IMG/VR virus record: IMGVR_UViG_3300032236_001180
Location: 60,556-124,555 of that record
Reading direction: 5' to 3' (one strand)
DNA: 64,000 nucleotides
Origin: a virus
Position 1 is the stretch's first letter. Each line of letters starts with the position of its first letter. The notes beneath the pieces were generated by a model that ran no database searches, had not been told where the DNA came from, and was given only the letters and a program-made list of their open reading frames with translations. Made by a program: the position numbers and the translations under genes. Positions 3,018-61,088 of the stretch are shown one piece after another.

Positions 3018-3680
3018 ATGGCAGTTGCACCACTTAATAAGTTCCTCACATTTGCAGTTCCAGTTGCGCCAGGAGAACAAGTAGTATATACAACTCCTGT
3101 GGGAGTATCGGCAATTTTACTTTATGCTCAGGCATCAAATGTTGCTGGAATTACAACTTATCCATCATTGACATTTACACATCGCAGAACAACAATTAAA
3201 ACTGGAAATGTAAGAAACAATAGAGTCATTAAAGGTGGAAAAATATTTCCAAATGATAGTTTAATTATTATTGATGGTAGATTGGTATTAGAAAGAACGG
3301 CTTTAATTTCAGATTCAATTGTAATTTCTGGAACTCAATCTGGTATTGTTTCAGTTACTGGTTGTAAGTATGATAACACAACAGGCATAACAACAGTTAC
3401 TACAATTAGTCCCCATAACTTTTCTGTTGGGGACGAAATTACAATGAGTGGTCTTGGATTTACTTGTAGTGGAAGCAGTGGAATTACTACTACCATATTT
3501 CCATCACCGCAAGCATCTTTTGTTGTAAGTGGAATCACTGGAAGCGTTGGAACTTCTCTTACCTTTACTACAACTAGTGGAGTAATTGCTGGAATAGCGC
3601 ACACTTATGTGAGTGGAGGAAAAGTAGCTCCACTTCAAATGGAATTTATTTGTAGTATTTTGGAAAATAGTACAGTATAA
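3018..3680 (+). CDS. Virion structural protein
   Basis: Tightly coupled to neighbours. MAVAPLNKF...YTTPVGVSAILLYAQ...SILEN is paralogous to 22546-22887, with an extra TGITTVTT..HNFSVG module. Confidence 0.7.
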   Translation: MAVAPLNKFLTFAVPVAPGEQVVYTTPVGVSAILLYAQASNVAGITTYPSLTFTHRRTTIKTGNVRNNRVIKGGKIFPNDSLIIIDGRLVLERTALISDSIVISGTQSGIVSVTGCKYDNTTGITTVTTISPHNFSVGDEITMSGLGFTCSGSSGITTTIFPSPQASFVVSGITGSVGTSLTFTTTSGVIAGIAHTYVSGGKVAPLQMEFICSILENSTV

Positions 3681-6600
3681 TGGCGAAGTATTTAAGTGGA
3701 AGAGTTCAAAGAACCCCACAATCTGGATTAACTTCTGACAGATATAGCTATTTGTCTTTGGATCAAGCAGAGCCAAATCTTGGCGATCCTGCGGTTCCTG
3801 GAGTAATACTACCTTCTGGAGTTCAATATCAACTAATATCAGTACTCAATCATCCAGGAGAAAGATATTGGATTCCTGTTGGTGGTGGTTTGATTCCAGG
3901 TTCTATTAGTGTTTATGATGAAGGATTGCTAGTTCCACCTGGAGGTGTAAGTAGCATTACTCAACTTAATTTTGTTGGTGCTGCTATTAGTGCTTCTGGG
4001 TATTTGGATTCTTATGGAAATCCAGGCACAATTTCAACGATTACAGTTTTTGCTCCGGGAAATAATAAAGAATTAATTTTTAATAGTAATAATGAGTTTT
4101 CATCCTCTGTTGATTTAACTTATGATACTAACACTGGTATCTTAACTGCAGCAAGAATATTAAATGTTGGTACTGGTGGTACAGTTTTTTCAACAACAGG
4201 CATTGGTTCTGTTGGTATTGGAACTACAAATCCAACCACAAAACTTCATATTGTTGGAGATTTGAGACTAACTGGAACCATTTACGATTATGCAAATAAT
4301 CCCGGAATAAGTCAACAAATATTAGTTAAAAACAATCTTGGTTCATTGGTATGGACTAGTCAAGGTTCAATTAAAGCAGGAGCAGGTGGAACTTTTAATC
4401 AAGTACAATATCATAATTCTGCTGGATTGGTAGATGGTGCTGCAAATTTTGTATATGATCCAATTACTGGTAATGTTGGTATTGGAAGTACTTTGCCAAC
4501 TTATCTTTTAGATGTTGCCGGAAATACTAGAATTACTGGAATTACTACATTAAATAAACTTTATGTAACTGGAATTTCCACTTTTAGTTCTTCTGCGGAT
4601 TCTACAAATACAACATCTGGAGCATTAATTATATCCGGTGGTGTTGGAATTGCCAAAAACTTAAATGTGGGGGCAGTAATATCCACACAAAGTTTAAATG
4701 TAACCGGCCAGACAACAACTCAAAATTTAAATGTTGTTGGTGTCTCTACTTTATTTGATATTACCGGAACAAGTGCCAATTTTACTGGTATTGTCACAGC
4801 ATCTACATTTAAAGGACAAATCAGTTCTGGTGTTGGAACAATTACCACATTTAATTCCACAACTGGAATAATAACCGCTTTAACTGGCACAGCAGTTACT
4901 TATACGACTGGAAATATTACTACTTTAAATGGTTCTAATCTTTATTATAATACCGGCATTATAACATCATTAACAAGTACGAATTCATCTCTTGCTAATA
5001 TTATTTCATCTGGAATTAGTACTCTTGGAATTACAACAACAACTCAATTAACTGCTAGAAATTTAAATGTTTCCGGAATTACGACAACTCAAACTTTAAA
5101 TGTTTCTGGCACTTCTACCTTTGGCGGTAGCATTATACCATCAGCAACTACAACTTATAATATTGGAAATATCAATTATAAGTGGAATAGTCTTTATGTT
5201 AGTACTATTGTTGCAGATCAAATTACAGGTAATACAACTACTGCAACAAGTGTGATAGGTGGTTATGCTGATATAACATCCTCAAATGTTTCTGGAATTT
5301 CCACTACTCAATATTTGGTAGTTTTAGGTAATAGTTCTTTAGGTATTGCTACTGCTACTAGTGTTACCGCAAATACATTTACTGGTTCTTTGAATGGTAA
5401 TGCCAATACTGCTACAAAATTAGCGACTGGTAGAACTATTGCTATTACTGGTGATTTGGCTTATACGAGTCCATCATTTGATGGTACTGTGAATGTGACT
5501 GGTATTGGCACTTTATCTAATACTGGCGTTACTAGTGCAACATATGGTTCTTCAACGACAGTTCCACAGATTGCGATTGATGCTAAAGGTAGAATTACTT
5601 CGGCATCTAATGTTGGTGTTAATTTTAGTGCTGCCACAGTAGCATCCGCAGATAAATTAACTACAGCAAGAACGATTGCTATTACTGGTGATTTGGCTTA
5701 TACGAGTCCGCCATTTGATGGTACTGCAAATGTGACTGGCATTAGTACTTTAGCGAATACTGGCGTTGTTGCAGCGACTTATGGGTCTTCTACAACAGTT
5801 CCGCAGATTGCGATTGATGCTAAAGGTAGAATTACTTCAGCATCCAATGTTGGTGTTAATTTTAGTGCTGCCACAGTGGCATCCGCAGATAAATTAACCA
5901 CAGGAAGAACAATTTCTATTACTGGGGACTTAGCTTATACAAGTCCATCATTTGATGGTACTGTAAATGTAACTGCAACTGGTACTTTAGCGAATACTGG
6001 TGTTGTTGCAGCCACTTATGGATCTTCAACAACAGTTCCACAAATTATAGTTGATTCTAAAGGCAGAATTACTTCGGCATCTAATGTTGGTGTTAATTTT
6101 AGTGCTGCCACAGTAGCATCAGCAGATAAATTGACTAATGGTAGAACAATTTCTATTACAGGAGATTTAACTTATACTAGTCCATCATTTGATGGTACTG
6201 TAAATGTAACTGCAACTGGTACTTTAGCATCTACTGGTGTTGTTGCAAATACTTATGGATCTGGTTCTCAAGTTCCTGTATTTACAGTAGATTCTAAAGG
6301 TAGAATTACTTCTGTTACAAATACAAGTATTACAGGAATCAATGCTTCTTCTGTTGCTGCTGCCGGTTCCAATACCCAAATACAGTTCAATGATAATAGC
6401 GTTTTTGCTGGAAATGCAAATCTTACTTTTAATAAATCTACAAATACATTTGCAACTTCAATAATATCTGCTAGTAACTCAATTACTGCTGGAACAAATA
6501 CTAGATATCAAATTGGAAATGCTTATCTATCTTCCGGTGGAGATTATGCACATTTAGCAACACACGAATGGTATAATGGTTCATCCTGGCAAACAGATTC

Positions 6601-8413
6601 AACTCCTGGTGGATTATTCCAAATTACAGGGCAATCTTTTAATTGGTATAAACATAACGGTACAGCAACTCATACATTATCACTCAATCTAGATTCTTCT
6701 GGAAATTTAGCTGCAACAGGTACAATCACAGGAACCCAATTAATCTCCACAGTTGCCTCCCCAACCGCACCACTATCAGTAACTTCAACCACTCAAGTTA
6801 CTAACTTAAATTCAAATTACCTGAATGGTCTTACTGCGACCCAGTTCTTCAATAATATGGGGAACAATCACGGCACCAGAACAGATTTTAATTCAATTAC
6901 TAATTTTGGATTTAATTATGTTCAAGGTTCTACAAATAGTCCTGGGATTCCTAGTGCTACTCAGTATTATAATGTTTCATTAGGTCTTGGCAATGATTAT
7001 GCATATTCACAATATGCAATGGAGTTTGCAATACCAAGAGCATCCATAGGCGGAAATCCATACCCTTCAGTAAGATTTAGAGAAGGTGGCACTTGGGGTT
7101 CTTGGAGTAAAATATATGCGGGTTATGCAGATAGTGCAGGATCTTCAACCAATTCAACCAATGCAATTACTGCAACCAACTTATCCGGGGGATCAGTCGC
7201 TGCAACTACTGGAACTTTCAGCAACTACTTAAGAACCCTAGGGCAAGTTCGTGCAACTGGTTGGTATGGAACTCCTACTGGAAGTTCTTATACTGGTCTT
7301 GCAGTTGAAATGGGAGTAAGTGGTGGTACTGGATATACTCTTTGTTATAACCGAGACACTAGTACTTATGGTAATTTTAATCTTGCTGGTGCGTCTACAA
7401 ATATTCTATTGCCATCCTCCGGTACTACTATTACTGTTACTGGTTCAATTAGTGCATCGGGTTCAGTTGCAGGAACCAACATAACATCAGGAGGAAATGT
7501 TACTGGTTCTTCTGTTTCTTGTTCTGGAAACGCAGCCACTGCAACCAACTTAAGCACAATAAGAACTAATTGGTATACAAATGGAACTATTTCTGCTGTT
7601 GTTGGGCAACTTTCCTGGAAATACTACCAAGACAACCACACAATCTTTGATGCTTCTGCTAGTACTTCTCCTGATGGTGGAGCAGTAAATAATACCAATT
7701 CTCAAGTTGCTTGGACTTCAACATATCCAACGTTAATGGGATGGAATGGCACAAATACTTTTGGTGTTCGTGTTGATTCTGCAAGAATTGCAGATACTAC
7801 AACTAGTCTTGCAAGTTTAACTGTAAATCAAACATCATATAGTTGCACAAATCCGATTACAACAGCAACTGGTAATACTATTAATATTGCATCTTCAAGT
7901 AATGCTTATGGAAGAAAATTTGTTCAATCTACAGCACCTACAAGTCCTTGCGATGGTGATGTTTGGTATGATACTAGCGGAGCTACTGCAACCGGATCAA
8001 TAGATGCTATAGGATTAGCAAATCAAGTTTTATATAAAAATGCATCCAATCTTACAACTGGTTCTAATAATTTGGTATTTGATGGAACAAATCTTTTTGT
8101 GGCAGGAGATATTACTGCATATTATACTTCAGATCAAAGATTAAAAAATAATATCACACCAATTTCAAATTCATTAGATAAAGTACTTTCAATTAGTGGA
8201 AATATATTTGATTGGGATAAAAAATCTGGCAAAACAGGAAGTGAAGCCGGAGTAATTGCACAAGAAATACAAAAAGTTCTTCCCCAAGCGGTCGTCACAA
8301 GAGATAATGGTTACCTTGCAGTAAAATATGACCAGATAATTCCTCTTTTGATTGAGGCAATTAAAGACCTCAAAGAAGAAATAAATGAACTAAAAAAAGA
8401 AAAAGACAATTAA
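3680..8413 (+). CDS. Long tail-fibre-like protein with C-terminal S74 intramolecular chaperone
   Basis: GIGTTNP motifs and internal 79-aa repeats. C-terminus YTSDQRLKNNI..GVIAQEIQ..VKYDQIIPLLIEAIK followed by a coiled coil. Confidence 0.85.
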   Translation: MAKYLSGRVQRTPQSGLTSDRYSYLSLDQAEPNLGDPAVPGVILPSGVQYQLISVLNHPGERYWIPVGGGLIPGSISVYDEGLLVPPGGVSSITQLNFVGAAISASGYLDSYGNPGTISTITVFAPGNNKELIFNSNNEFSSSVDLTYDTNTGILTAARILNVGTGGTVFSTTGIGSVGIGTTNPTTKLHIVGDLRLTGTIYDYANNPGISQQILVKNNLGSLVWTSQGSIKAGAGGTFNQVQYHNSAGLVDGAANFVYDPITGNVGIGSTLPTYLLDVAGNTRITGITTLNKLYVTGISTFSSSADSTNTTSGALIISGGVGIAKNLNVGAVISTQSLNVTGQTTTQNLNVVGVSTLFDITGTSANFTGIVTASTFKGQISSGVGTITTFNSTTGIITALTGTAVTYTTGNITTLNGSNLYYNTGIITSLTSTNSSLANIISSGISTLGITTTTQLTARNLNVSGITTTQTLNVSGTSTFGGSIIPSATTTYNIGNINYKWNSLYVSTIVADQITGNTTTATSVIGGYADITSSNVSGISTTQYLVVLGNSSLGIATATSVTANTFTGSLNGNANTATKLATGRTIAITGDLAYTSPSFDGTVNVTGIGTLSNTGVTSATYGSSTTVPQIAIDAKGRITSASNVGVNFSAATVASADKLTTARTIAITGDLAYTSPPFDGTANVTGISTLANTGVVAATYGSSTTVPQIAIDAKGRITSASNVGVNFSAATVASADKLTTGRTISITGDLAYTSPSFDGTVNVTATGTLANTGVVAATYGSSTTVPQIIVDSKGRITSASNVGVNFSAATVASADKLTNGRTISITGDLTYTSPSFDGTVNVTATGTLASTGVVANTYGSGSQVPVFTVDSKGRITSVTNTSITGINASSVAAAGSNTQIQFNDNSVFAGNANLTFNKSTNTFATSIISASNSITAGTNTRYQIGNAYLSSGGDYAHLATHEWYNGSSWQTDSTPGGLFQITGQSFNWYKHNGTATHTLSLNLDSSGNLAATGTITGTQLISTVASPTAPLSVTSTTQVTNLNSNYLNGLTATQFFNNMGNNHGTRTDFNSITNFGFNYVQGSTNSPGIPSATQYYNVSLGLGNDYAYSQYAMEFAIPRASIGGNPYPSVRFREGGTWGSWSKIYAGYADSAGSSTNSTNAITATNLSGGSVAATTGTFSNYLRTLGQVRATGWYGTPTGSSYTGLAVEMGVSGGTGYTLCYNRDTSTYGNFNLAGASTNILLPSSGTTITVTGSISASGSVAGTNITSGGNVTGSSVSCSGNAATATNLSTIRTNWYTNGTISAVVGQLSWKYYQDNHTIFDASASTSPDGGAVNNTNSQVAWTSTYPTLMGWNGTNTFGVRVDSARIADTTTSLASLTVNQTSYSCTNPITTATGNTINIASSSNAYGRKFVQSTAPTSPCDGDVWYDTSGATATGSIDAIGLANQVLYKNASNLTTGSNNLVFDGTNLFVAGDITAYYTSDQRLKNNITPISNSLDKVLSISGNIFDWDKKSGKTGSEAGVIAQEIQKVLPQAVVTRDNGYLAVKYDQIIPLLIEAIKDLKEEINELKKEKDN
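5417..6320 (+). repeat. About four tandem 237-nt (79-aa) repeats inside the fibre gene
   Basis: Unit KL.TGRTI.ITGDLAYTSPSFDGT.NVT..TL.NTGV.A.TYGSSTTVPQI..D.KGRITSA starts at 5417, 5654, 5891 and 6128. Confidence 0.9.
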
Positions 8414-8458
8414 TTGAATAACAATCTAAATATTTAAAAAATTAAAATTAAAATTAAT

Positions 8459-9166
8459 ATGCCAACTTATGTTAGAAGTTCTGGGCAGTGGTTGCCTGTA
8501 TCTGGTTCTGTTCCAGCAGACATTAATACTATAGCATCAGCAAATCAAGTTATATATAAAAATTCATCAAATATACCAACTGGTTCCGCTAATTTGACTT
8601 TTAGTGGTTCTAATTTGTCTTGTGGTGGTAATATATCTGCTACTGGAAATGTATCTGCTACTGGAAATGTATCTGCTAGTGGAAATGTGATTGCTTCTGG
8701 ATATGGATTTTTTACAACTCCAAACTTAGGAACAACCGGTGGTGTAAGAGTGGTTGCAAACGCAACCACTGGAAATGGATATTTGCAATTTACAAATAAC
8801 GCTCAGAATGCAGAATATTTTAATATTTTAGCAACTTCTGGTAGCGCAGTTTTTAGTGGTACAGTTGCAGCAAACTCCGATGTTAAGTTGAAAACTAATA
8901 TTAAAACAATTTCTAATGCTTTAGATAAAGTAACTAGACTTAGGGGGGTAGAGTATGATAGAATAGATTATAATAACCATGAAATTGGCGTCATTGCTCA
9001 GGAGGTTGAAAAAGTTGTTCCAGAAGTTATTAAAGAAAATAATGATATTAAATCAGTTGCTTATGGAAATCTAGTTGGATTGTTAATTGAAGCAATCAAG
9101 GAACAAAATCAAAAAATAGATAATCTCACAGAAGAAATAAATACTTTGAAAAATGGAGGTAAATAA
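8459..9166 (+). CDS. Short fibre protein with S74 intramolecular chaperone
   Basis: NSDVKLKTNIKTI..LRGVEY..IGVIAQEVE..VAYGNLVGLLIEAIK. TAAATA late-promoter-like motif near 8427. Confidence 0.85.
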   Translation: MPTYVRSSGQWLPVSGSVPADINTIASANQVIYKNSSNIPTGSANLTFSGSNLSCGGNISATGNVSATGNVSASGNVIASGYGFFTTPNLGTTGGVRVVANATTGNGYLQFTNNAQNAEYFNILATSGSAVFSGTVAANSDVKLKTNIKTISNALDKVTRLRGVEYDRIDYNNHEIGVIAQEVEKVVPEVIKENNDIKSVAYGNLVGLLIEAIKEQNQKIDNLTEEINTLKNGGK

Positions 9167-9373
9167 GTGGCTGCTGTATTATATGGAACTTATATGATGG
9201 ATAATGGAAATAGGGTATTGAGTTCAGTCGGAAATTGTAATTGTGCTATAGCAGATTGTGGTGATTTTCAGTGTTCTGCCTCAAATTGTTCTGGTTTAGG
9301 ACAATCCAATAATCAAGTATATATAGGAGGAACTGGATTTACCAGATACAATTGCAATTGTCAATGTGCATAA
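9167..9373 (+). CDS. Cys-rich 68-aa peptide, putative radical SAM substrate (RiPP-like precursor)
   Basis: GTG start immediately after the upstream TAA, SD GGAGG at about 9156. Eight Cys in the pattern CxC-x4-C-x4-C-x4-C...CxCxC. Lies two genes upstream of a radical SAM/SPASM gene. Confidence 0.75.
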   Translation: MAAVLYGTYMMDNGNRVLSSVGNCNCAIADCGDFQCSASNCSGLGQSNNQVYIGGTGFTRYNCNCQCA

Positions 9374-9375
9374 TT

Positions 9376-10143
9376 ATGTTAATTAAATCATCAACTAATA
9401 GAAAATGTGGTCCAACTCAATTTTTAGATACTATTAATATATCTAAAAATAATGAAGATTTTTTAATTGATTTTAATTTGAAAAAAAATGTAGTTTCTAT
9501 TGGTTCAACTTTTGAGAATACATCAATTTTAGAACAACATAATATATTAAAACAAATTGAAATTAAATATAGTGATATTCAAAATCTTTCTACAGATTAT
9601 GGAATTATATCTTTTTCATTAGATTATCAATATGAAAATTATATATTAGCATCAATTACACCAAAAACTTTAAACGAAAGGAAACATTTTGCAGATTATC
9701 ACAATGAAAAGAAAATTATACCCATAATTACATATTTTACTCCATATAAAGGATGTTCTTTTGATGAATGCAATATAGTAATAGAATGTTTAAATGAGGT
9801 AAAAACTGAAACTGATATTGTGTTTGATAGTAATATTCCATCTATCAGAAATTTTATTGATAATGAAAATTGCTGGGGCAATTTAACTAATTACCCATCA
9901 ATTATTTCCACAAATACTATAGATATTGGAAAAATATCTATATTTGAAGTAATTGTTCCGCCAAATACAACACTTTATTTGGAATCAAATATTGGAATTT
10001 TAAATAAAAGTAAAATCACACAAACTACTAATATTGAATTGGATTTAACATCTATAAAAGAAGTAACAGAAGATGTTGTTATAAAAATAAGTTCCAAATA
10101 TTGGTCTGGAATTGTTAAAAAAATAATCAAAATATCTAACTAA
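9376..10143 (+). CDS. Hypothetical protein in radical SAM cassette
   Basis: 255-aa ORF from ATG 9376, 2 nt after the peptide stop. Very AT-rich, no recognised motif. Confidence 0.7.
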   Translation: MLIKSSTNRKCGPTQFLDTINISKNNEDFLIDFNLKKNVVSIGSTFENTSILEQHNILKQIEIKYSDIQNLSTDYGIISFSLDYQYENYILASITPKTLNERKHFADYHNEKKIIPIITYFTPYKGCSFDECNIVIECLNEVKTETDIVFDSNIPSIRNFIDNENCWGNLTNYPSIISTNTIDIGKISIFEVIVPPNTTLYLESNIGILNKSKITQTTNIELDLTSIKEVTEDVVIKISSKYWSGIVKKIIKISN

Positions 10144-10165
10144 TTACTTATTAATTATTCAAATT

Positions 10166-11563
10166 ATGGCAAAATTTAATGTATATGCAGTGAATTCTGA
10201 AACAGAAGAAATTCACGAATTTCTTTACGATAATGATAAATCTTATTTATTTGACACTACAAAGGGAATTCAATATCCAAAAGAAAAACTAGAAAAAAAT
10301 GAAAATAATTATAATAATATTGCATTTCCATTAACAAAAGACAATCCAGTAAATAAAATTAGAGATTTCAGAAAGCTCAAAATTTCATTTGGATTAAAAT
10401 GTAATTATTCTTGCGAATATTGCTCTCAAAAATTTGTTCCTGGCGCAGAAGTAGATAATAAAACTTTTGATTTAGATGTATATCTGAAAAAACTTTATTC
10501 AACTTTCAATTTTGGTGAAGATGGTTTAGGAAAAACAATAGAATTTTGGGGAGGGGAACCACTTTTATATTGGAATAAAATTGTTCCTATTGCAGAAAGT
10601 ATTAAATTAAAATATCCAAAAATATCTTTTTCAATTATTACCAATGGCAGTTTAATCACAAAAGAAAAAGCAGATTGGTTATATGATATGGGATTTTATG
10701 TCGGAATTAGTCACGATGGGCCGGGGCAAAAAGTAAGAGGACCAAATCCATTTGATGTTCCCAAAATCAAAGAATCAATTTTATATCTTCATCGTAAATT
10801 TGCAGCAGAAGATAGAACCACATTCAATTCAATGCTGAATAAAGACAATACATCAAGAAAAGCGATTGCGGATTATTTCATTGAACTTACTGGAAATAAA
10901 GATGTGAAAATTGGAGAAGGTGGTTTTGTGGATGCTTATGATGAAGGTGGATTGGAAATGAGTTTAGGAAAAGAATATTTCAAAAAATATTCTAAAAATT
11001 CATTTAAACAAATTCGTCAACATCTTTGCACTAATTTTTCTTTGGTAAAAGTTAAAATCACAAATTTCTTTCAGACATTTCATTTTGGAACTTCATCAAA
11101 AGTTATTTCGCAAAAATGTGGAATGGATAAAGAATATAATATTGCTGTTGATTTAAGCGGAAATGTGATAACTTGCCAAAATGTTTCTGCTAACGCAATT
11201 GCCCCCAATGGCAATTCGCATAAAATAGGTCATATTGATGATTTTGATAGTATTAAATTAACTACTGCAACCCATTGGAGTCATAGAAAGGATTGTTCTA
11301 CTTGTCCTGTATTGCAACTTTGTCAAGGTTCTTGTATGTTTTTAGAAAGAGAATTGTGGGATGCCAGCTGTAATAATGCTTATTATGATAATATTCCTTA
11401 TTTTTGTTCAGTAATTGAGCATATGACTGGATGTATTCCTATTTACATTGATGGTGATTTGCCAGAAGAAAGAAAAGATATTTTTGGATTATTTGAAAAT
11501 GGGAGGTTTTCAGAAGAAAATTTTGATTCTAAAAAGTTTTATGAATTTTTGGAGACCCCTTGA
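10166..11563 (+). CDS. Radical SAM protein with C-terminal SPASM domain
   Basis: CxxxCxxC (CNYSCEYC), FWGGEPLL, TNG, ISHDG. SPASM cysteines CGMDK..GNVITC..CSTCPVLQLCQGSC..C. Confidence 0.93.
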   Translation: MAKFNVYAVNSETEEIHEFLYDNDKSYLFDTTKGIQYPKEKLEKNENNYNNIAFPLTKDNPVNKIRDFRKLKISFGLKCNYSCEYCSQKFVPGAEVDNKTFDLDVYLKKLYSTFNFGEDGLGKTIEFWGGEPLLYWNKIVPIAESIKLKYPKISFSIITNGSLITKEKADWLYDMGFYVGISHDGPGQKVRGPNPFDVPKIKESILYLHRKFAAEDRTTFNSMLNKDNTSRKAIADYFIELTGNKDVKIGEGGFVDAYDEGGLEMSLGKEYFKKYSKNSFKQIRQHLCTNFSLVKVKITNFFQTFHFGTSSKVISQKCGMDKEYNIAVDLSGNVITCQNVSANAIAPNGNSHKIGHIDDFDSIKLTTATHWSHRKDCSTCPVLQLCQGSCMFLERELWDASCNNAYYDNIPYFCSVIEHMTGCIPIYIDGDLPEERKDIFGLFENGRFSEENFDSKKFYEFLETP

Positions 11564-11588
11564 CAGGATCCAAAATGTGTGCTAGAAT
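11560..11588 (+). promoter_or_regulatory. Sigma70-like promoter
   Basis: TTGACA(11560)-17 nt-TAGAAT(11583), followed by SD GGAGG. Confidence 0.7.
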
Positions 11589-11603
11589 GAGGAGGACCAC
11601 TGT

Positions 11604-11786
11604 GTGCCCATAATGCAAATTGATCGTGAGACCCTTCAAGAACTTCGTGATTTACAAGAAGATATGTGTTGTCATTTTGTAGATGAAAATTTTCCAATTA
11701 GCGGAGAAACTTATTGGACCTGTGTAGAAGCATTTGCACAAGCAAAACTTGCTGAACTTCGCGGGGAATTAGTTTATGATAATTGA
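11604..11786 (+). CDS. Small hypothetical protein
   Basis: 60-aa ORF with SD and its own promoter. Alternative ATG at 11613. Confidence 0.7.
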   Translation: MPIMQIDRETLQELRDLQEDMCCHFVDENFPISGETYWTCVEAFAQAKLAELRGELVYDN

Positions 11787-11840
11787 TTGATAATTTATTA
11801 AGTGTCTAAATAAGACAGAAGAAATATCTGTGCTTATAAA

Positions 11841-14800
11841 ATGCCATTATCAAGGTTAGAAAATTTCCTAAAGAATGCTGAAGGTAACATTCTTTACGTT
11901 AATCCATCAGATTTTGATGCGACTGATAGTTACGAAAACAAGGGTAATAGTTTAGCTCGTCCTTTTAAATCTATCCAAAGGGCATTAATAGAAGCAGCAA
12001 GATTTTCATATCAGACAGGAAGAAATAACGATAGAATTGATAGAACGACTATACTTGTATATCCTGGAACTCATTATATTGATAATCGTCCAGGACTTGC
12101 AATTGATACCACTGGGACATTAAAACAGAGAACTGGTTCTGGCTCTGGTGTTTCTTGGGCAAGTGGTGTTTCAATTAATGAACTTGGAATAGCATTCAAT
12201 ACAGATATTTTTGACGCAAATAACGATTTATTTAAATTAAATTCGGTAGATGGTGGCGTAATCATTCCTCGTGGTGTTTCCATTATTGGTTATGATTTAA
12301 GAAAAACTAAAATTCGTCCATTATATGTTCCAGATCCATTAGATGATTATATTGGTGCCTCTTCTATCTTTAATGTAACCGGTACTTGTTATTTTAGTAT
12401 CTTTACGTTTTTGGATGCAGACACAACAAAATTTTCGTATAAAAATTACAACAACACCACAAATTTTCCAAATTATTCTCACCACAAACTAACTGCATTT
12501 GCTTATGCAGATGGTGTGAATAATGTAAAAGTCAGCAATGTAGATAGTGGATTGACTGATTTGCAGATGTATTATGATAAACTTACATTAGTTTATGGTA
12601 ATAGTTCTGGAAGACCACTTATAGATTATCCAGTCGGTGTTGATTTTGAACCAAACGTAGATGAATATCGTATTGTTGGAAATCTAACCGCAAATAATCT
12701 TGGTATTACAAGTATTCGTTCTGGTGATGGCGTAATCCCATCTTCTTCTATTACTGTAACTACCAACAAAACTCACAATCTTTTTGTTGATACTCCAATC
12801 TTAATGAAAGGTGTTGGTATTGATACCAGCATTTATAATGGTTCATTTGTCGTAAGTGGTATTGTAGGACTGACTACATTCACCTATACATCATTAGGAT
12901 CTCCCACAAATCCACTTCCTGATGCCGTAACCTATCTCCAAGATGCTCAAGTTGTTGTAGAAGCAGATAGTGTTTCTTCTGCGTCTCCATACATCTTCAA
13001 CTGCTCTTTAAGATCAGTTTATGGTATGTGTGGATTACACGCTGATGGAAGCAAATCCACTGGTTTTAAATCAATGGTTGTGGCACAATTTACTGGTGTG
13101 TCACTACAGAAAGATGATAATGCTTTTATTGAATATGATTCAACCAGCAAATCATTTAAAGATAATACTCAATCATCAAATTCTCCACTTCATACATATT
13201 CCGGATCCATCTACAAACCAGTATATGAAAATTATCACGTAAAAGTATCAAATGGTGGATTTGTTCAGTGTGTATCTATTTTTGCGATTGGTTATGCTAG
13301 ACAATTCTTGGCCGAAAGTGGTGGTGATATGTCTATCACTAACTCTAATAGTAATTTTGGTGCCGTAGCTCTTGAATCTATTGGTTTCAGAAAAGAAGCA
13401 TTTGATCGTGATAATACTGGATATATTACTCACATCATTCCACCAAGGGAAGTTACTACAAATGAAAATGAAGTAACTTGGTTATCATTAGATATTGCAA
13501 AAACAATTTCAGCGGCAACAGTTTCAAATTTATATCTTTATGGATACAATAGTTTAGATATAGCCCCACCACATCAAGTTGATAGTTATCGTATTGGGGC
13601 GAAGCAAAACGAACTGTTAAATCTAACAGTAACTATTGGAACAGCACAAACAACTTATACCGCACCAGTATTGATGCAGTCTCCTGGTGGTTCAATATAT
13701 TCCGCAAAGAAAGTATCTACTATTGGAAGATCCGCAGGAATTAATAGTATCAGCAATGATATCTTTACACTTACAGATGCCCACAACTTCTATAATGGAG
13801 AAAAAGTACGAGTATTCAGTGATACTGCCGAAGCACCAAATAATGTAGAATTGAATAAAGTTTATTATATTTCCACAACTGGGTCTTCAAATCAAGTTAA
13901 ACTTTCTCCAACATATAGTGATGCAATTGCTGCAACTCCAAGAACTATCACCGGAACGAATAATCTTGGTGGCATTCTTACTATTGTTAGTTCAGTAACT
14001 GATAAGCAACCAGGAGATCTTGGACATCCAATTCAATTTGATTCTACGCAATCAAATTGGTACATCACTTGTTCCAATTCCAATCAAGATAATAATATCT
14101 ACAATGCAATTGTAGGATTGGGAACAACCGGATTAGGTCTAGAATCTGGTTCCACTTTCGTAAAAAGAAAATTAGATAATCGTTCATTGAATGAAAGAAT
14201 TTATAAACTTCGTTATGTGATTCCAAAAGAAGCAACAAATGCACGACCACCAATTGCTGGTTATACGCTCCAAGAAAGTAGCACAACAACAATTGATAGT
14301 CCTGGAGTTTTGTCCGGAGATCTTTCTAATTCTATACAACTCAAAAATCCAAAAATCATTACTGGGGCATCATATTCTTCAAATGTAATTACTATTACGA
14401 CTGAACTTCCACATAATCTAAATTCTGGTGATGGAGTTAAAATTCAAAATGTACTAAGTTCAAATAATCCAACAGGTTCTGCATCTTCTGTATTCAATGG
14501 TTCTTTCACTATTGCATCAGTTCCAAGTAGTAAAACCTTTACTATTTCTGGTATTGCCACTAATCCTGGATCTTTTGCAAATATCACAAATCAAAGAACT
14601 ACATCACAACAAGTTGCAGCACTTCCAACTGTAACTAGGGAAAGATATTATGATACTTATTTCATTTATAGAATTGATGAAATTAAGAAGTTCATTCCTG
14701 GTTCTTCAACCACAGGACAAGATGGTATCTATCATCTTACAGTAATGTCTTCAAGTGAATCACCAACACTTAAAAATGTTGGGTATGGTATTAGTTATAA

Positions 14801-58121: not shown

Positions 58122-61088
58122 TTTACCTTGATAGTTTTGGTGGCAAGATTGGAAACATTATGTGGCAAAACACTTGGAATGAACTATGGGGACACACTGG
58201 ATTTTGGGAAAAAAATCCAGGAGAAAAAGGTCGTTTCACTCTTTGGGGTATTCGTCCTCGTCACAAAAACAATGGAGAAACTAAATGACTGAATATGAAA
58301 AAGACGGTTTTAATGCTCTTGCTATTGTGCTTGCGTTTGTCTTTTTTACTGGTATTATGTTTATAGGGGCAGGAAGGTCGGACTACACACTAAGAACCAA
58401 TAACTATCAAACTGCCCTAAAAATGATTACAGAGTGTAGAGTTCAGGCAAAACTAAATCCTGATAAGATTTGTGGTAAAATTCCTACCTGGGAGCAATAC
58501 AAATGATTTTTTCAAGGGCACTATTAGGAACTGATAAAAAGAAAACTAAACTTTCTTGGGTTGAATATATTTGGTTTTCTTGTATATGTCAGGGGTGGGC
58601 AAACTGTTGGTATGCCTTTCAGAATTGGGTAGATTTGATGAAGGACGACTACCAGGAATACGCACTTCTTGTATCTGATGACCCTTTGGAGCAGTGTATT
58701 TTATACTTCTGGGATAGTTTAGAGGATGATATTTATCCCAAAGAGTTCCTTGAATATCTGATGGGAATGGCAGACGAAGTTATGAGTGGAAAGGTGAAAA
58801 CTTATCCAATAGATGAAGTTTTTGATAGAGTTAAAAAAGAACTTACTGATTATGAATAAATTAAAATTAACCGAAGAACAACAAAAATTCCTTAAAAATA
58901 ATTTCAATAATTTTTCAGAAGAACTTATAAATTCCACTTTTCAATCTGTGATTGGTGGGGAACGGGAGTTAAAAGATTTTTGTACTATGGAAGGCATTGA
59001 GAGGCAACTCACAAGAGCAAATGATTATAATATGAATAGTTCTTTAATATTTTATGCTCATATGTATTATCCAGCAAAATGGAGAATTGAAAAAATGATA
59101 GTAACTAAACCTACCGCAGATGATGAACAAACCTGAATTTCCAAAACCAAGACTAATTCGTGAGGACTTTATGCCAGAAAAAGACATTACAACAGAATAC
59201 CGCATCAAAAAAATCACAAAAGGTGATATGATATATTTCCGTGCTCAAAGAGAATTTCTTTGGTGGTGGATTGATATTTATTATGAGACTGAATGGTATG
59301 AATTGGTAGTTCAATATATCAACGAAGATATTGTCAAGAGGACAAAACCTGTAATAGAATATCTTGATGTGACACCTGACGAACTGGCACCAAGAACTCC
59401 CAATCCCCCACCAAAGAACCCATAATACTCTTATAAGAAACCAAACCGATGAAATTTGAATTCAACTTTGTAAAAAAAGGGGTGTTTAACCTACCAAAAA
59501 CTGATTGGTGGGATTTTGACCCAAACGACCACATAGAAATTCAACCACATTGGACTATGGCACATTTGGCAGTAGAAATGGAATTATTCCCATCAGTTTC
59601 TATCGCAAGAAAAAACGGTTGGAATGAACCAATACCAAGAGGATACACAGAGAAAAGGAACATTGGCAAAATGAAAAAGTCTATGTTTATTCACAATCCA
59701 TCTGATGAATTTATTAACAATCCTGAATGGGGTAAAGACTAATGCGTCCAAATACCTATGTAATTCTTCAACGAGCAGTAGAAGAAGGAGCACTTCTTGG
59801 ATACCGAAAGGCATTCAAACGAGTTGAGAATCCAACAGAAGAACAAATTGTAGAAGCACTTACAGACGCAATAATGCTGACTGTAAGTGAAGTATTTGAT
59901 TTCCCCCATCAATCAGGAGATAGTTATTTGTGATGACTGAACTTTATATTTTGAAATGTGAAATTGAAGAAACCAAAATAGAACTTCAACAGAGCATTGA
60001 AAGAACGGAAAGAATTAAAAAACGACTTACGGTTCTGAAAGAAAAACTTTTAGAAATGGTTGGATCTGATGACCACAAAAATAGAGTATAAAAAATGAAA
60101 AAGTGTAAGACCTGTAAGCACTGGGATTATCAGGGTTTTAGAATGGGTAAGTGTTCTGGTATTCTGGCAAGTGCTCTGTTGATTGCAATTCCCAACCAAC
60201 CAAAAGGCAAACCCGATGGTAAAATGATTATGAGAGAAGGCATCACCACCAATTCAGATTTTGTGATAACAACTGAAAACTGGAACTGTAAAAATTGGAG
60301 TATGAAATGATTGATTTAAGTATCCTTGAACGACAATCAAATCTAAAATGTTGGTGTCAGGAATGTTGTAAAAAAGAAACAGGGGAATATAATGCTATTC
60401 GTGTAGTTGTATGTCCTGATTGTGGAAACAAACGATGCCCCCGAGCAACAAATCACGAGTTAGAATGTACAAATAGTAATGAACCGGGTCAAGAAGGGAG
60501 TATTTATTGAGGTATTATGAAATTTTATTACGACCGAGATTCACTTGAACTTATACATAATTTCATTTTTAGTTTAACTGAAAATGAAATCCGAAAAGTT
60601 TATCATAAGCACGGAGCATCTTATAATGATAGAGTATTTTTAGACCCATTAACATCAGAAACCTATAAAATCGGTCATTCTATCAGACTAATTCATGATA
60701 CTTTTACTGATGATGGTAAAGTTTATTTGGGTATTGATTACAAAAAAAAGTATGAGGAACTTGTAGAACTTCTAAAACCTTATAAACTTGAAGATGATAT
60801 GTCTCCTTCAACAACTCTCAAAATGATTTTGAAGTATCAGGTAAAATAATTATGATGGAATTTTTTGTTATCATGGTAAAAAGGCAAGATTGTAAAGTAT
60901 ATGCTGACTTACATAAAGCAACTGAAAAAATCTATCTTACTTATGAGGATGCCGAAAAAGAACTAAACGAATGTGGATTATATGGAGACTACTTCTATAA
61001 AAATTACTTCCATATTGTAAGACTTATTGCTTGTTTGCCAGAGACACTTGACGAACTGGCACAAGAGCACTCCCCAGATGCCCCTTGA
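58118..61088 (+). other. Cluster of small translationally coupled hypothetical ORFs
   Basis: ORFs at 58118, 58285, 58503, 58852, 59120, 59449, 59742, 59933, 60095, 60307, 60517 and 60852, mostly with overlapping or near-adjacent stop/start codons. 60307-60510 has Zn-binding CWCxxC..CPDCGNKRCPRATNH. Confidence 0.65.

Follow-up and report, generated by a model that had tools for sequence, protein, structure and literature searches.

What is a radical S-adenosylmethionine (SAM) enzyme, encoded next to a small cysteine-rich protein, doing in the midst of a phage tail-fibre region? The question is raised by a cassette at positions 9167–11563 of the window, i.e. the whole stretch of 64,000 nt analysed here (positions 60,556–124,555 of the IMG/VR virus record IMGVR_UViG_3300032236_001180). 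Three close-packed + strand genes encode a 68-aa Asn-Cys-rich protein (9167–9373, GTG start, read from its translation), which is the predicted substrate, a conserved 255-aa partner (9376–10143; 'c4/c48' family, as assigned by hhalign and a profile, and modelled with AlphaFold2 (AF2)) and a radical SAM enzyme of 465 aa that has a full SPASM domain (10166–11563; Pfam, NCBIfam and phrog_1802). An earlier note on this DNA had taken them for a tightly coupled cassette of the type that makes peptides built by the ribosome and modified after translation (RiPPs), with PapB as an example of such enzymes. The coupling is evident: only 2 nt separate the 68-aa stop from ATG 9376 and 22 nt the 255-aa stop from ATG 10166, and GTG 9167 follows the TAA of the fibre gene before it (8459–9166) with no gap. 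The enzyme–substrate cassette, too, has held up, but not its PapB-like detail, and what it makes probably belongs to the virion and is not a free peptide. Our best explanation as a whole, to which we assign a probability of about 0.5, is that the module modifies a fibre-tip component of the virion; what is modified would thus probably be a host-binding part of the particle, not an antibiotic.

Sequence motifs and profile scores place the enzyme firmly in the Cys- or peptide-modifying SPASM class. It scored 45.8 bits against the Pfam Radical_SAM family (PF04055; cut-off 29.5), 32.1 bits over residues 318–394 against the NCBIfam SPASM family TIGR04085 (cut-off 27), and 9.4e-59 against phrog_1802. 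The CX3CX2C motif (C79, C83 and C86) and the SPASM cysteines (C318, C337, C377, C380, C386, C390 and C402), both already pointed out in the earlier note, proved invariant in 13 of 13 aligned homologues, as did a WGGEP motif; the SPASM spacing follows the order C337 (after G-x4) and C377-x2-C380-x5-C386-x3-C390, and three [4Fe-4S] sites are predicted. The enzyme family is large: among 6803 candidates, E ≤1e-30 was reached by 2892 clusters formed at 90% identity, and likewise by 610 representatives when the identity level was set to 50%. Among the best 120 members listed, no source name went beyond 'uncharacterized' or 'SPASM domain-containing'.

Conservation of gene neighbourhoods was assessed over 41 viral loci, whose enzymes are 36–69% identical to that of the window, and the best 80 of 212 bacterial-contig loci, the latter recovered by an alignment-based scan after a single-sequence scan had given no relative (L-numbers denote individual loci; L007 was omitted as the same record as L002, and the window contributed its first 20,000 bases). 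A tail was called when a same-strand open reading frame (ORF) contained at least three X-Cys units ending no more than 12 residues from its C-terminus, and linkage counts were limited to loci with at least 2.5 kb upstream of the enzyme (37 viral or phage, 59 bacterial-contig). Such an ORF preceded the enzyme in 32 of the 37 viral and 54 of the 59 bacterial-contig loci, which answers the check that the earlier note had called for, namely whether homologous enzymes come with a Cys-rich peptide. Counted per ORF over 124 related loci, tails occurred in 98 of 1808 same-strand upstream ORFs; as controls, just 1 of the 1982 ORFs downstream of the enzyme had one, and 7 of the 4792 on the opposite strand. 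Many loci are related or near-copies of each other, so that the raw counts overstate independence; enzyme clusters were therefore counted as well, and with clustering at 90%, 70% and 55% identity a tail lay upstream in 68 of 77, 30 of 37 and 16 of 20 clusters, respectively. By these counts, the Cys-rich protein and the radical SAM/SPASM enzyme are a strongly conserved pair, and the three-gene set recurs beside or within the tail-fibre genes of many phages. The window itself contains all three elements, i.e. an ORF with an X-Cys tail, a c4-family partner and an A2-family enzyme.

The composition of the tails is equally distinctive. In 89 distinct tail proteins, Asn preceded 65% of 1034 cysteines, followed by Ala (12%) and Asp (5%) as the residues paired with Cys. 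The bias extended beyond the terminal run, where Asn stood before 72% of cysteines and Asn, Asp or Gln together before 75%, vs. a combined share of these three residues of 19% in overall composition; among 369 other proteins encoded in these loci, one of the three residues preceded only 13% of cysteines. An aromatic or Arg-Tyr residue often comes directly before the tail. The N-terminal parts of tail proteins are unrelated between subfamilies, leaving the tail as their common feature, and because the enzymes stay 36–50% identical across these unrelated N-termini, it seems to be the tail rather than a leader that is recognized. Could the alternating cysteines instead be a metal- or iron-sulfur-binding motif, which the neighbouring enzyme leaves covalently unmodified? 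Metallothioneins contain C-x-C motifs, T4-type phages have metal-binding fibre tips, and alternating cysteines would line one face of a beta-strand that could conceivably face the axis of a fibre trimer. However, metal binding explains neither why the tails are almost obligatorily linked to a SPASM enzyme nor why Asn is so strongly preferred before Cys, making this reading very improbable.

Within the 68-aa protein, translation confirmed the cysteine pattern described previously: eight cysteines (positions 24, 26, 31, 36, 41, 63, 65 and 67) preceded, in order, by N, N, D, Q, N, N, N and Q, none in residues 1–23, and a C-terminus reading YNCNCQCA, so that the NCNCQC tail stops one residue short of the end. 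In the entire 124,555-bp record this was the sole ORF with at least three X-Cys units ending within 12 residues of the C-terminus. A homologue search with the 68-aa protein alone returned only itself. Four homologues of 66–87 aa are encoded in the loci with the closest cassettes (L004, L127, L128 and L130); they keep the first 20 residues and the Y-NCNC tail, whereas the middle region differs from one to the next in how long it is, in its sequence and in how its cysteines are spaced. The window protein does contain the tandem Cx3[D/Q/N] units, three in number, that the earlier note highlighted; they are not conserved in these relatives, as counterparts of C26 and C31 are missing from L004 and the spacing is altered in L127, L128 and L130. 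What persists is the Asn-Cys dipeptide and the C-terminal NCNC tail. Taken with the linkage described above, we consider the 68-aa protein very probably the enzyme's substrate.

Where would such a substrate end up? Proteins ending in X-Cys tails span 66 to 616 aa, and the label 'peptide' under which the small gene had been introduced therefore understates a family in which many members are fibre-like and some are capped by a Hint domain. The 404-aa tail protein of L009 matches PHROG tail-fibre families, as do seven of ten large tail proteins sampled from bacterial contigs (the other three matched nothing). Enzyme homologues with 45–49% identity reside in the tail-fibre regions of Ralstonia phage RSP15 and Achromobacter phages JWF and 2-1. 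In RSP15, a protein annotated as 'side tail fiber' carries an NC...NCQCGN tail at its end; in JWF, gp028 contains the run NCNCDCNCNCSC, whose last Cys is residue 1 of a Hint domain (Pfam Hom_end_hint, 3e-12, from residue 308). The tail gene of RSP15 is ORF048 and its enzyme gene ORF045, and the enzyme of JWF is gp030. The X-Cys run likewise directly precedes a Hint domain in the prophage-like loci L065 and L066. Hint domains cleave themselves, and by analogy such cleavage would leave the X-Cys run as the new C-terminus. In an enzyme tree, small and fibre-sized substrates were interleaved (eight changes for 11 'small' rows) and the enzymes of the window and L004 adjoined the Hint-capped fibre group (SH-aLRT 80); this was a quick search, using 74 representatives at 85% identity drawn from 120 enzymes of at least 380 aa. 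Because the tails end real fibre proteins or precede Hint domains, a fibre-tip component appears more likely than a free RiPP, and a place for the product in the virion is, in our estimate, reasonably probable.

The immediate surroundings of the cassette have the same flavour. Upstream lies a short tail-fibre paralogue of 235 aa (8459–9166, + strand; Pfam, PHROG) with a C-terminal Peptidase_S74 intramolecular-chaperone domain (residues 140–191 match PF13884 at 1.7e-15) and hits to PHROG tail-fibre families down to 1.5e-37, so that four co-directional, close-packed genes extend over 8459–11563. Giant fibre genes flank the cassette on both sides, encoding 1577 aa upstream and 2245 aa downstream. 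An S74-type fibre gene stands within ~1 kb upstream in four of the five subfamily members (the window, L004, L127 and L130), and L127 repeats the stop-then-GTG abutment between the S74 fibre and the small Cys-rich gene. The arrangement recalls the gp38 adhesins of T2/S16-type phages, which are encoded after S74-chaperone fibres and are not known to need a dedicated modifying enzyme; the likeness, drawn by description only, consists of a small gene directly following a fibre gene with a self-cleaving chaperone, and of a hypervariable middle region.

Several observations nevertheless weigh against a virion-associated product or its proposed chemistry, and most of them would suit a free RiPP-like peptide, i.e. 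a 68-aa leader–core precursor whose product is soluble in the infected cell or after lysis, outside the virion, with host take-over, anti-defence, signalling or killing of competitors as examples of its role. The layout of the 68-aa protein is RiPP-like, the small protein consisting of 20 conserved N-terminal residues followed by a variable core and a Cys-rich end. It matched none of the Pfam or PHROG families, and thus no tail or structural family, and in L128 no fibre gene was found in the 3.8 kb upstream. Of the 96 loci that had at least 2.5 kb upstream, 10 were missing a terminal tail: the run is just two X-Cys units long in L001, it stops 18 residues from the end in L092, it is internal and precedes a Hint domain in L002, L003, L065 and L066, and L005, L040, L046 and L120 have no X-Cys run. 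The last of these, a contig of a Sulfuritalea metagenome-assembled genome (L120:1422–7182), places the enzyme homologue directly after an ABC transporter with a C39 peptidase and an HlyD protein, a classic bacteriocin context, with no X-Cys tail ORF in the 6 kb upstream; it may represent a bacterial, exported-peptide branch of the enzyme family. Tandem substrates also occur: L024 (1–1887) and L025 (2621–3979) encode three or four paralogous tail proteins of 100–176 aa in a row, resembling multi-precursor RiPP clusters. Finally, anSME, which converts Cys to formylglycine, is structurally as close to the enzyme as the thioether-forming CteB. In PMC12801897, a cyanophage radical SAM maturase is filed under 'antibiotic synthesis genes', by annotation only.

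Yet neither a protease nor an exporter accompanies the cassette in the window or in any of its four close relatives (L004, L127, L128 and L130). The absence of both had been noted earlier, along with a doubt that the product is a secreted bacteriocin, and our comparison sides with that doubt. The same tail that ends the 68-aa protein also ends genuine fibre proteins of up to 616 aa, and the unrelated N-termini of the substrates make recognition through a leader seem less likely than recognition of the tail. Nor did the enzyme give a Pfam hit to a PqqD-type RiPP recognition element (RRE) at E ≤0.1: the N-terminus of its AF2 model (pLDDT 82.5) shows four short strands at residues 3–37 and a short helix at 46–51, and no recognizable three-strand, three-helix winged helix-turn-helix. 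We hold a free peptide to be unlikely, and return to the modified fibre tip and the chemistry by which it might arise.

All named NCBIfam maturase families scored the enzyme far below their cut-offs, so that no family fixes the reaction: 65 vs. 500 for CcpM (TIGR04068), 28.7 vs. 525 for the CrpC-type TIGR04463 and 49.3 vs. 349.45 for anSME (TIGR03942). The PapB family NF047865 reached 61.1 bits against a cut-off of 340, its best stretch (residues 78–187) covering the N-terminal radical SAM part only. With these scores, and a period-5 motif that is not conserved, the PapB-type Cx3D reading of the earlier note is not supported; the likeness to PapB, a SPASM thioether enzyme, and its substrate PapA (the freyrasin ranthipeptide) lies in the SPASM class and in C-x3-D units of the window protein (C26–D30), as the Cx3D period is not kept in the closest homologues. 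The nearest solved structures were CteB, anSME, TigE and ChlB. The substrate of CteB is a 45-residue peptide, and those of anSME are sulfatases. CteB (SCIFF maturase, PDB 5WGG/5WHY; Foldseek 9.6e-12, profile E 1.6e-15) and anSME (PDB 4K36–4K39; Foldseek 3.7e-11, TM 0.49/0.61, profile E 1.4e-14 at 70–377) share with the enzyme a radical SAM core plus a two-cluster SPASM domain, and both act on Cys-containing peptides, but they are only 14–20% identical to it, and CteB has an N-terminal RRE where the window enzyme has a four-strand unit (residues 1–37).

The same enzyme–substrate pair could hence serve another chemistry, i.e. anSME-like oxidation of Cys to formylglycine, epimerization, or carbon–carbon or carbon–oxygen coupling. 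Besides the scores that leave the reaction unassigned, anSME aligns across nearly the whole enzyme, on a par with CteB, and the best sequence hit is TigE (8VPO), a cyclopropyl synthase. Against this stands that the motif of anSME substrates, C/S-x-P/A-x-R, is absent from the 68-aa protein. Moreover, the residues paired with Cys in the tails match the acceptor set of NxxcB, as given in the consulted part of PMC9389541, and many closely spaced cysteines are typical of thioether substrates, according to excerpts of PMC13692751. We judge a chemistry of this other kind quite improbable; thioether formation, argued by analogy, has somewhat better than even odds.

It is favoured because NxxcB and CrpC provide precedents. 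In the streptococcal radical SAM RiPP (RaS-RiPP) system, NxxcB installs a beta-thioether between Cys and Asn and tolerates Ala, Gln or Asp as acceptor (PMC9389541, in part). As proposed here, a radical SAM enzyme acts on Cys with Asn as acceptor, and the acceptor set corresponds to the residues that alternate with Cys in the tails; in NxxcA, however, the motif is N-x-x-C and lies in a short peptide for export, encoded by a bacterial cluster under quorum control, whereas the tails are runs of adjacent Asn-Cys at the C-termini of phage proteins of 66–616 aa (the two were compared by description only). CrpC of Methanococcus voltae places ranthionine links on a whole Cys-rich protein, CrpA (PMC13692751, in part). 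It is a three-cluster radical SAM/SPASM enzyme whose substrate has C-terminal Cys repeats and, on the evidence of those excerpts, sets a precedent for protein-sized substrates; it differs in its C-x-x-Q/D motifs within 17-residue repeats, in having a predicted RRE, and in belonging to an archaeal, cellular system.

The second gene of the cassette was listed as 9352–10143 with a TTG start and 263 aa. The 255-aa form from ATG 9376 is likely the true product, since six of the seven closest sequences in the partner alignment (A1) start at the corresponding Met, four of them with MLIK as does the window protein. It gave no Pfam or PHROG family at E ≤0.1, and its NCBIfam hits were at chance level, far below cut-off. 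By hhalign it was related to the c4 family (probability 91.6%, E 8e-7, 174 columns), which follows the tail gene in many loci and includes ORF047 of RSP15, and the A1 profile scored the window partner at E 1.1e-87. A second check proposed earlier, whether the 255-aa family is conserved upstream, was borne out: the A1 profile placed a member upstream of the enzyme in 22 of the 37 viral loci and in 46 of the 59 bacterial ones, and never downstream; the viral hits include the profile's own members. Unrelated proteins can take the same slot, namely c10 (11 of the 37 viral loci) and the JWF-type c27 (2 of the 37 viral loci and 6 of the 59 bacterial ones): hhalign found c48 unrelated to c10 and to c27, and c4 only weakly similar to c10 (41%). 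A scan of viral contigs with the partner alignment returned only the contig of L004 again. Judged by this recurrence, the partner is a conserved third member of the module.

In the AF2 model of the partner (pLDDT 86.9), residues 173–255 are predicted to form an immunoglobulin (Ig)-like beta-sandwich with ordinary scores (Z about 7–9). Searches with the whole model gave no fold match for the N-terminal domain, also in the ESM Atlas, and over its full length it matched only uncharacterized phage proteins, at TM 0.6–0.7. Prediction of a complex between the 255-aa and 68-aa proteins gave no answer either way (scores of 0.21 and 0.00, mark 0.32).

In the four closest cassettes (L004, L127, L128 and L130), a 2-oxoglutarate (2OG)-Fe(II) oxygenase is encoded between partner and enzyme, and L004 has a second one after the enzyme. 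More broadly, 17 of the 37 viral loci and 17 of the 59 bacterial ones had a hit to the c1 oxygenase profile upstream of the enzyme. The oxygenase families PF13759 and PF13640 were absent from the whole 124.5-kb record, and the intergenic gaps of the window are too small for an oxygenase gene; because of both, the cassette in the window is, on its gene content, the minimal three-gene core of a widespread phage module. With three genes and no oxygenase, it offers the simplest set for an experimental test.

Other loci are more elaborate. In L024 and L025, up to five tandem 2OG oxygenase genes follow the tail proteins, which contain many N-C-T-N-H-type repeats and have ACACNC-type ends. A variant without X-Cys tail, seen in L040 (5579–11376) and L039, has a conserved 55–70-aa protein with two cysteines before the enzyme, and two P4H-type oxygenases plus a second radical SAM paralogue after it. 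In L005 (3923–4651), which has no clear tail ORF, a His-rich membrane protein lies between the c4/c24 genes and the enzyme; by eye it looks like a di-iron enzyme of the fatty-acid-desaturase type.

Taken together, the modification of a fibre tip could proceed as follows. The 68-aa protein would be produced along with the fibre genes, its GTG being set against the stop of the S74-chaperone fibre gene. The enzyme would then recognize the C-terminal Asn-Cys tail, the sole feature common to all predicted substrates, and SAM-derived radical chemistry, assisted by the auxiliary clusters, would modify the cysteines, the most likely product being thioether links (of the ranthionine or sactionine type) to neighbouring Asn, Asp, Gln or Ala. 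A rigid, crosslinked and redox-inert tip might result. The Ig-domain protein may serve as presenter or chaperone, or as a co-assembled structural part, and the mature product would most likely be a virion-associated fibre-tip or adhesin-like piece and not an exported peptide. A more detailed picture, which we offer tentatively and at less than even odds for its three parts jointly, would have the radical SAM enzyme staple host-binding fibre ends by turning the Asn-Cys ladder into thioethers, possibly between the chains of a fibre trimer; would make the 68-aa protein a crosslinked tip, hypervariable and detachable, which docks on the short fibre once S74 has processed it; and would cast the 255-aa Ig-domain protein as its dedicated presenter.

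Our literature search, which did not extend to supplementary files that may hold gene tables, found no description of a module of X-Cys tail and radical SAM enzyme; PMC7029224 only mentions radical-SAM cassettes in host-recognition clusters of pelagimyophages. We thus regard the module as a variant of the radical SAM/SPASM Cys-modifying systems that is undescribed in the literature searched. Thioether chemistry by radical SAM enzymes is known from small secreted peptides, with one case of a cellular protein in the excerpts of PMC13692751. A phage radical SAM enzyme acting on tail-fibre ends would, if true, constitute a new kind of virion maturation, and such stapling of fibre ends would amount to enzymatic, RiPP-type covalent maturation of a virion protein. 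Crosslinked tails, if that is what they are, would also matter for how stable fibres are in oxic water, for efforts to engineer receptor-binding proteins that are stable and for the evolution of host range, as hypervariability is found between leader and tail.

As for the genomic setting, the source record is an IMG/VR virus fragment with an estimated completeness of 59%. T4-like Synechococcus phages accounted for most of its few DNA matches (121 of 156 records, none of which covered more than 4%), and with matches so few and short we infer a cyanomyovirus-like virus without claiming more. The 235-aa fibre protein resembles the last part of the 1577-aa fibre (3680–8413), with 35% identity over ~200 aa, and the two also share a 50%-identical module of 52 residues. 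As the fibre gene and the 68-aa gene are in frame, stop-codon read-through was considered as a source of the small protein and set aside, because a strong Shine-Dalgarno sequence, GGAGGT (9155–9160, + strand, read in the sequence), stands 6 nt before GTG 9167. Over window positions 8001–12000, the cassette has a G+C content of 0.29–0.30 vs. ~0.35 in the flanking fibre genes, which would fit a swappable or recently acquired module.

No RNA run was among the sequencing runs listed as containing this sequence; one DNA run contained it in full and may be the source sample. The T4-type late promoter TATAAATA matched seven times in the window (10.6 expected), never within the cassette; all seven matches, a number not above chance, fell on the + strand, the nearest one upstream of the cassette at 2792. 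Scans for sigma-70 promoters and terminators gave hits at chance level only, among them a sigma-70-like site at 11560–11588 (11 of 12 positions matching, with a TG extension) and a terminator-like hairpin at 11748–11765. The hairpin falls within a 60-aa ORF directly 3′ of the enzyme gene (11604–11786), which has a counterpart of 63 aa at the equivalent position in L004; in Synechococcus phages B3 and B23, a hypothetical gene shares ~75% DNA identity with this ORF.

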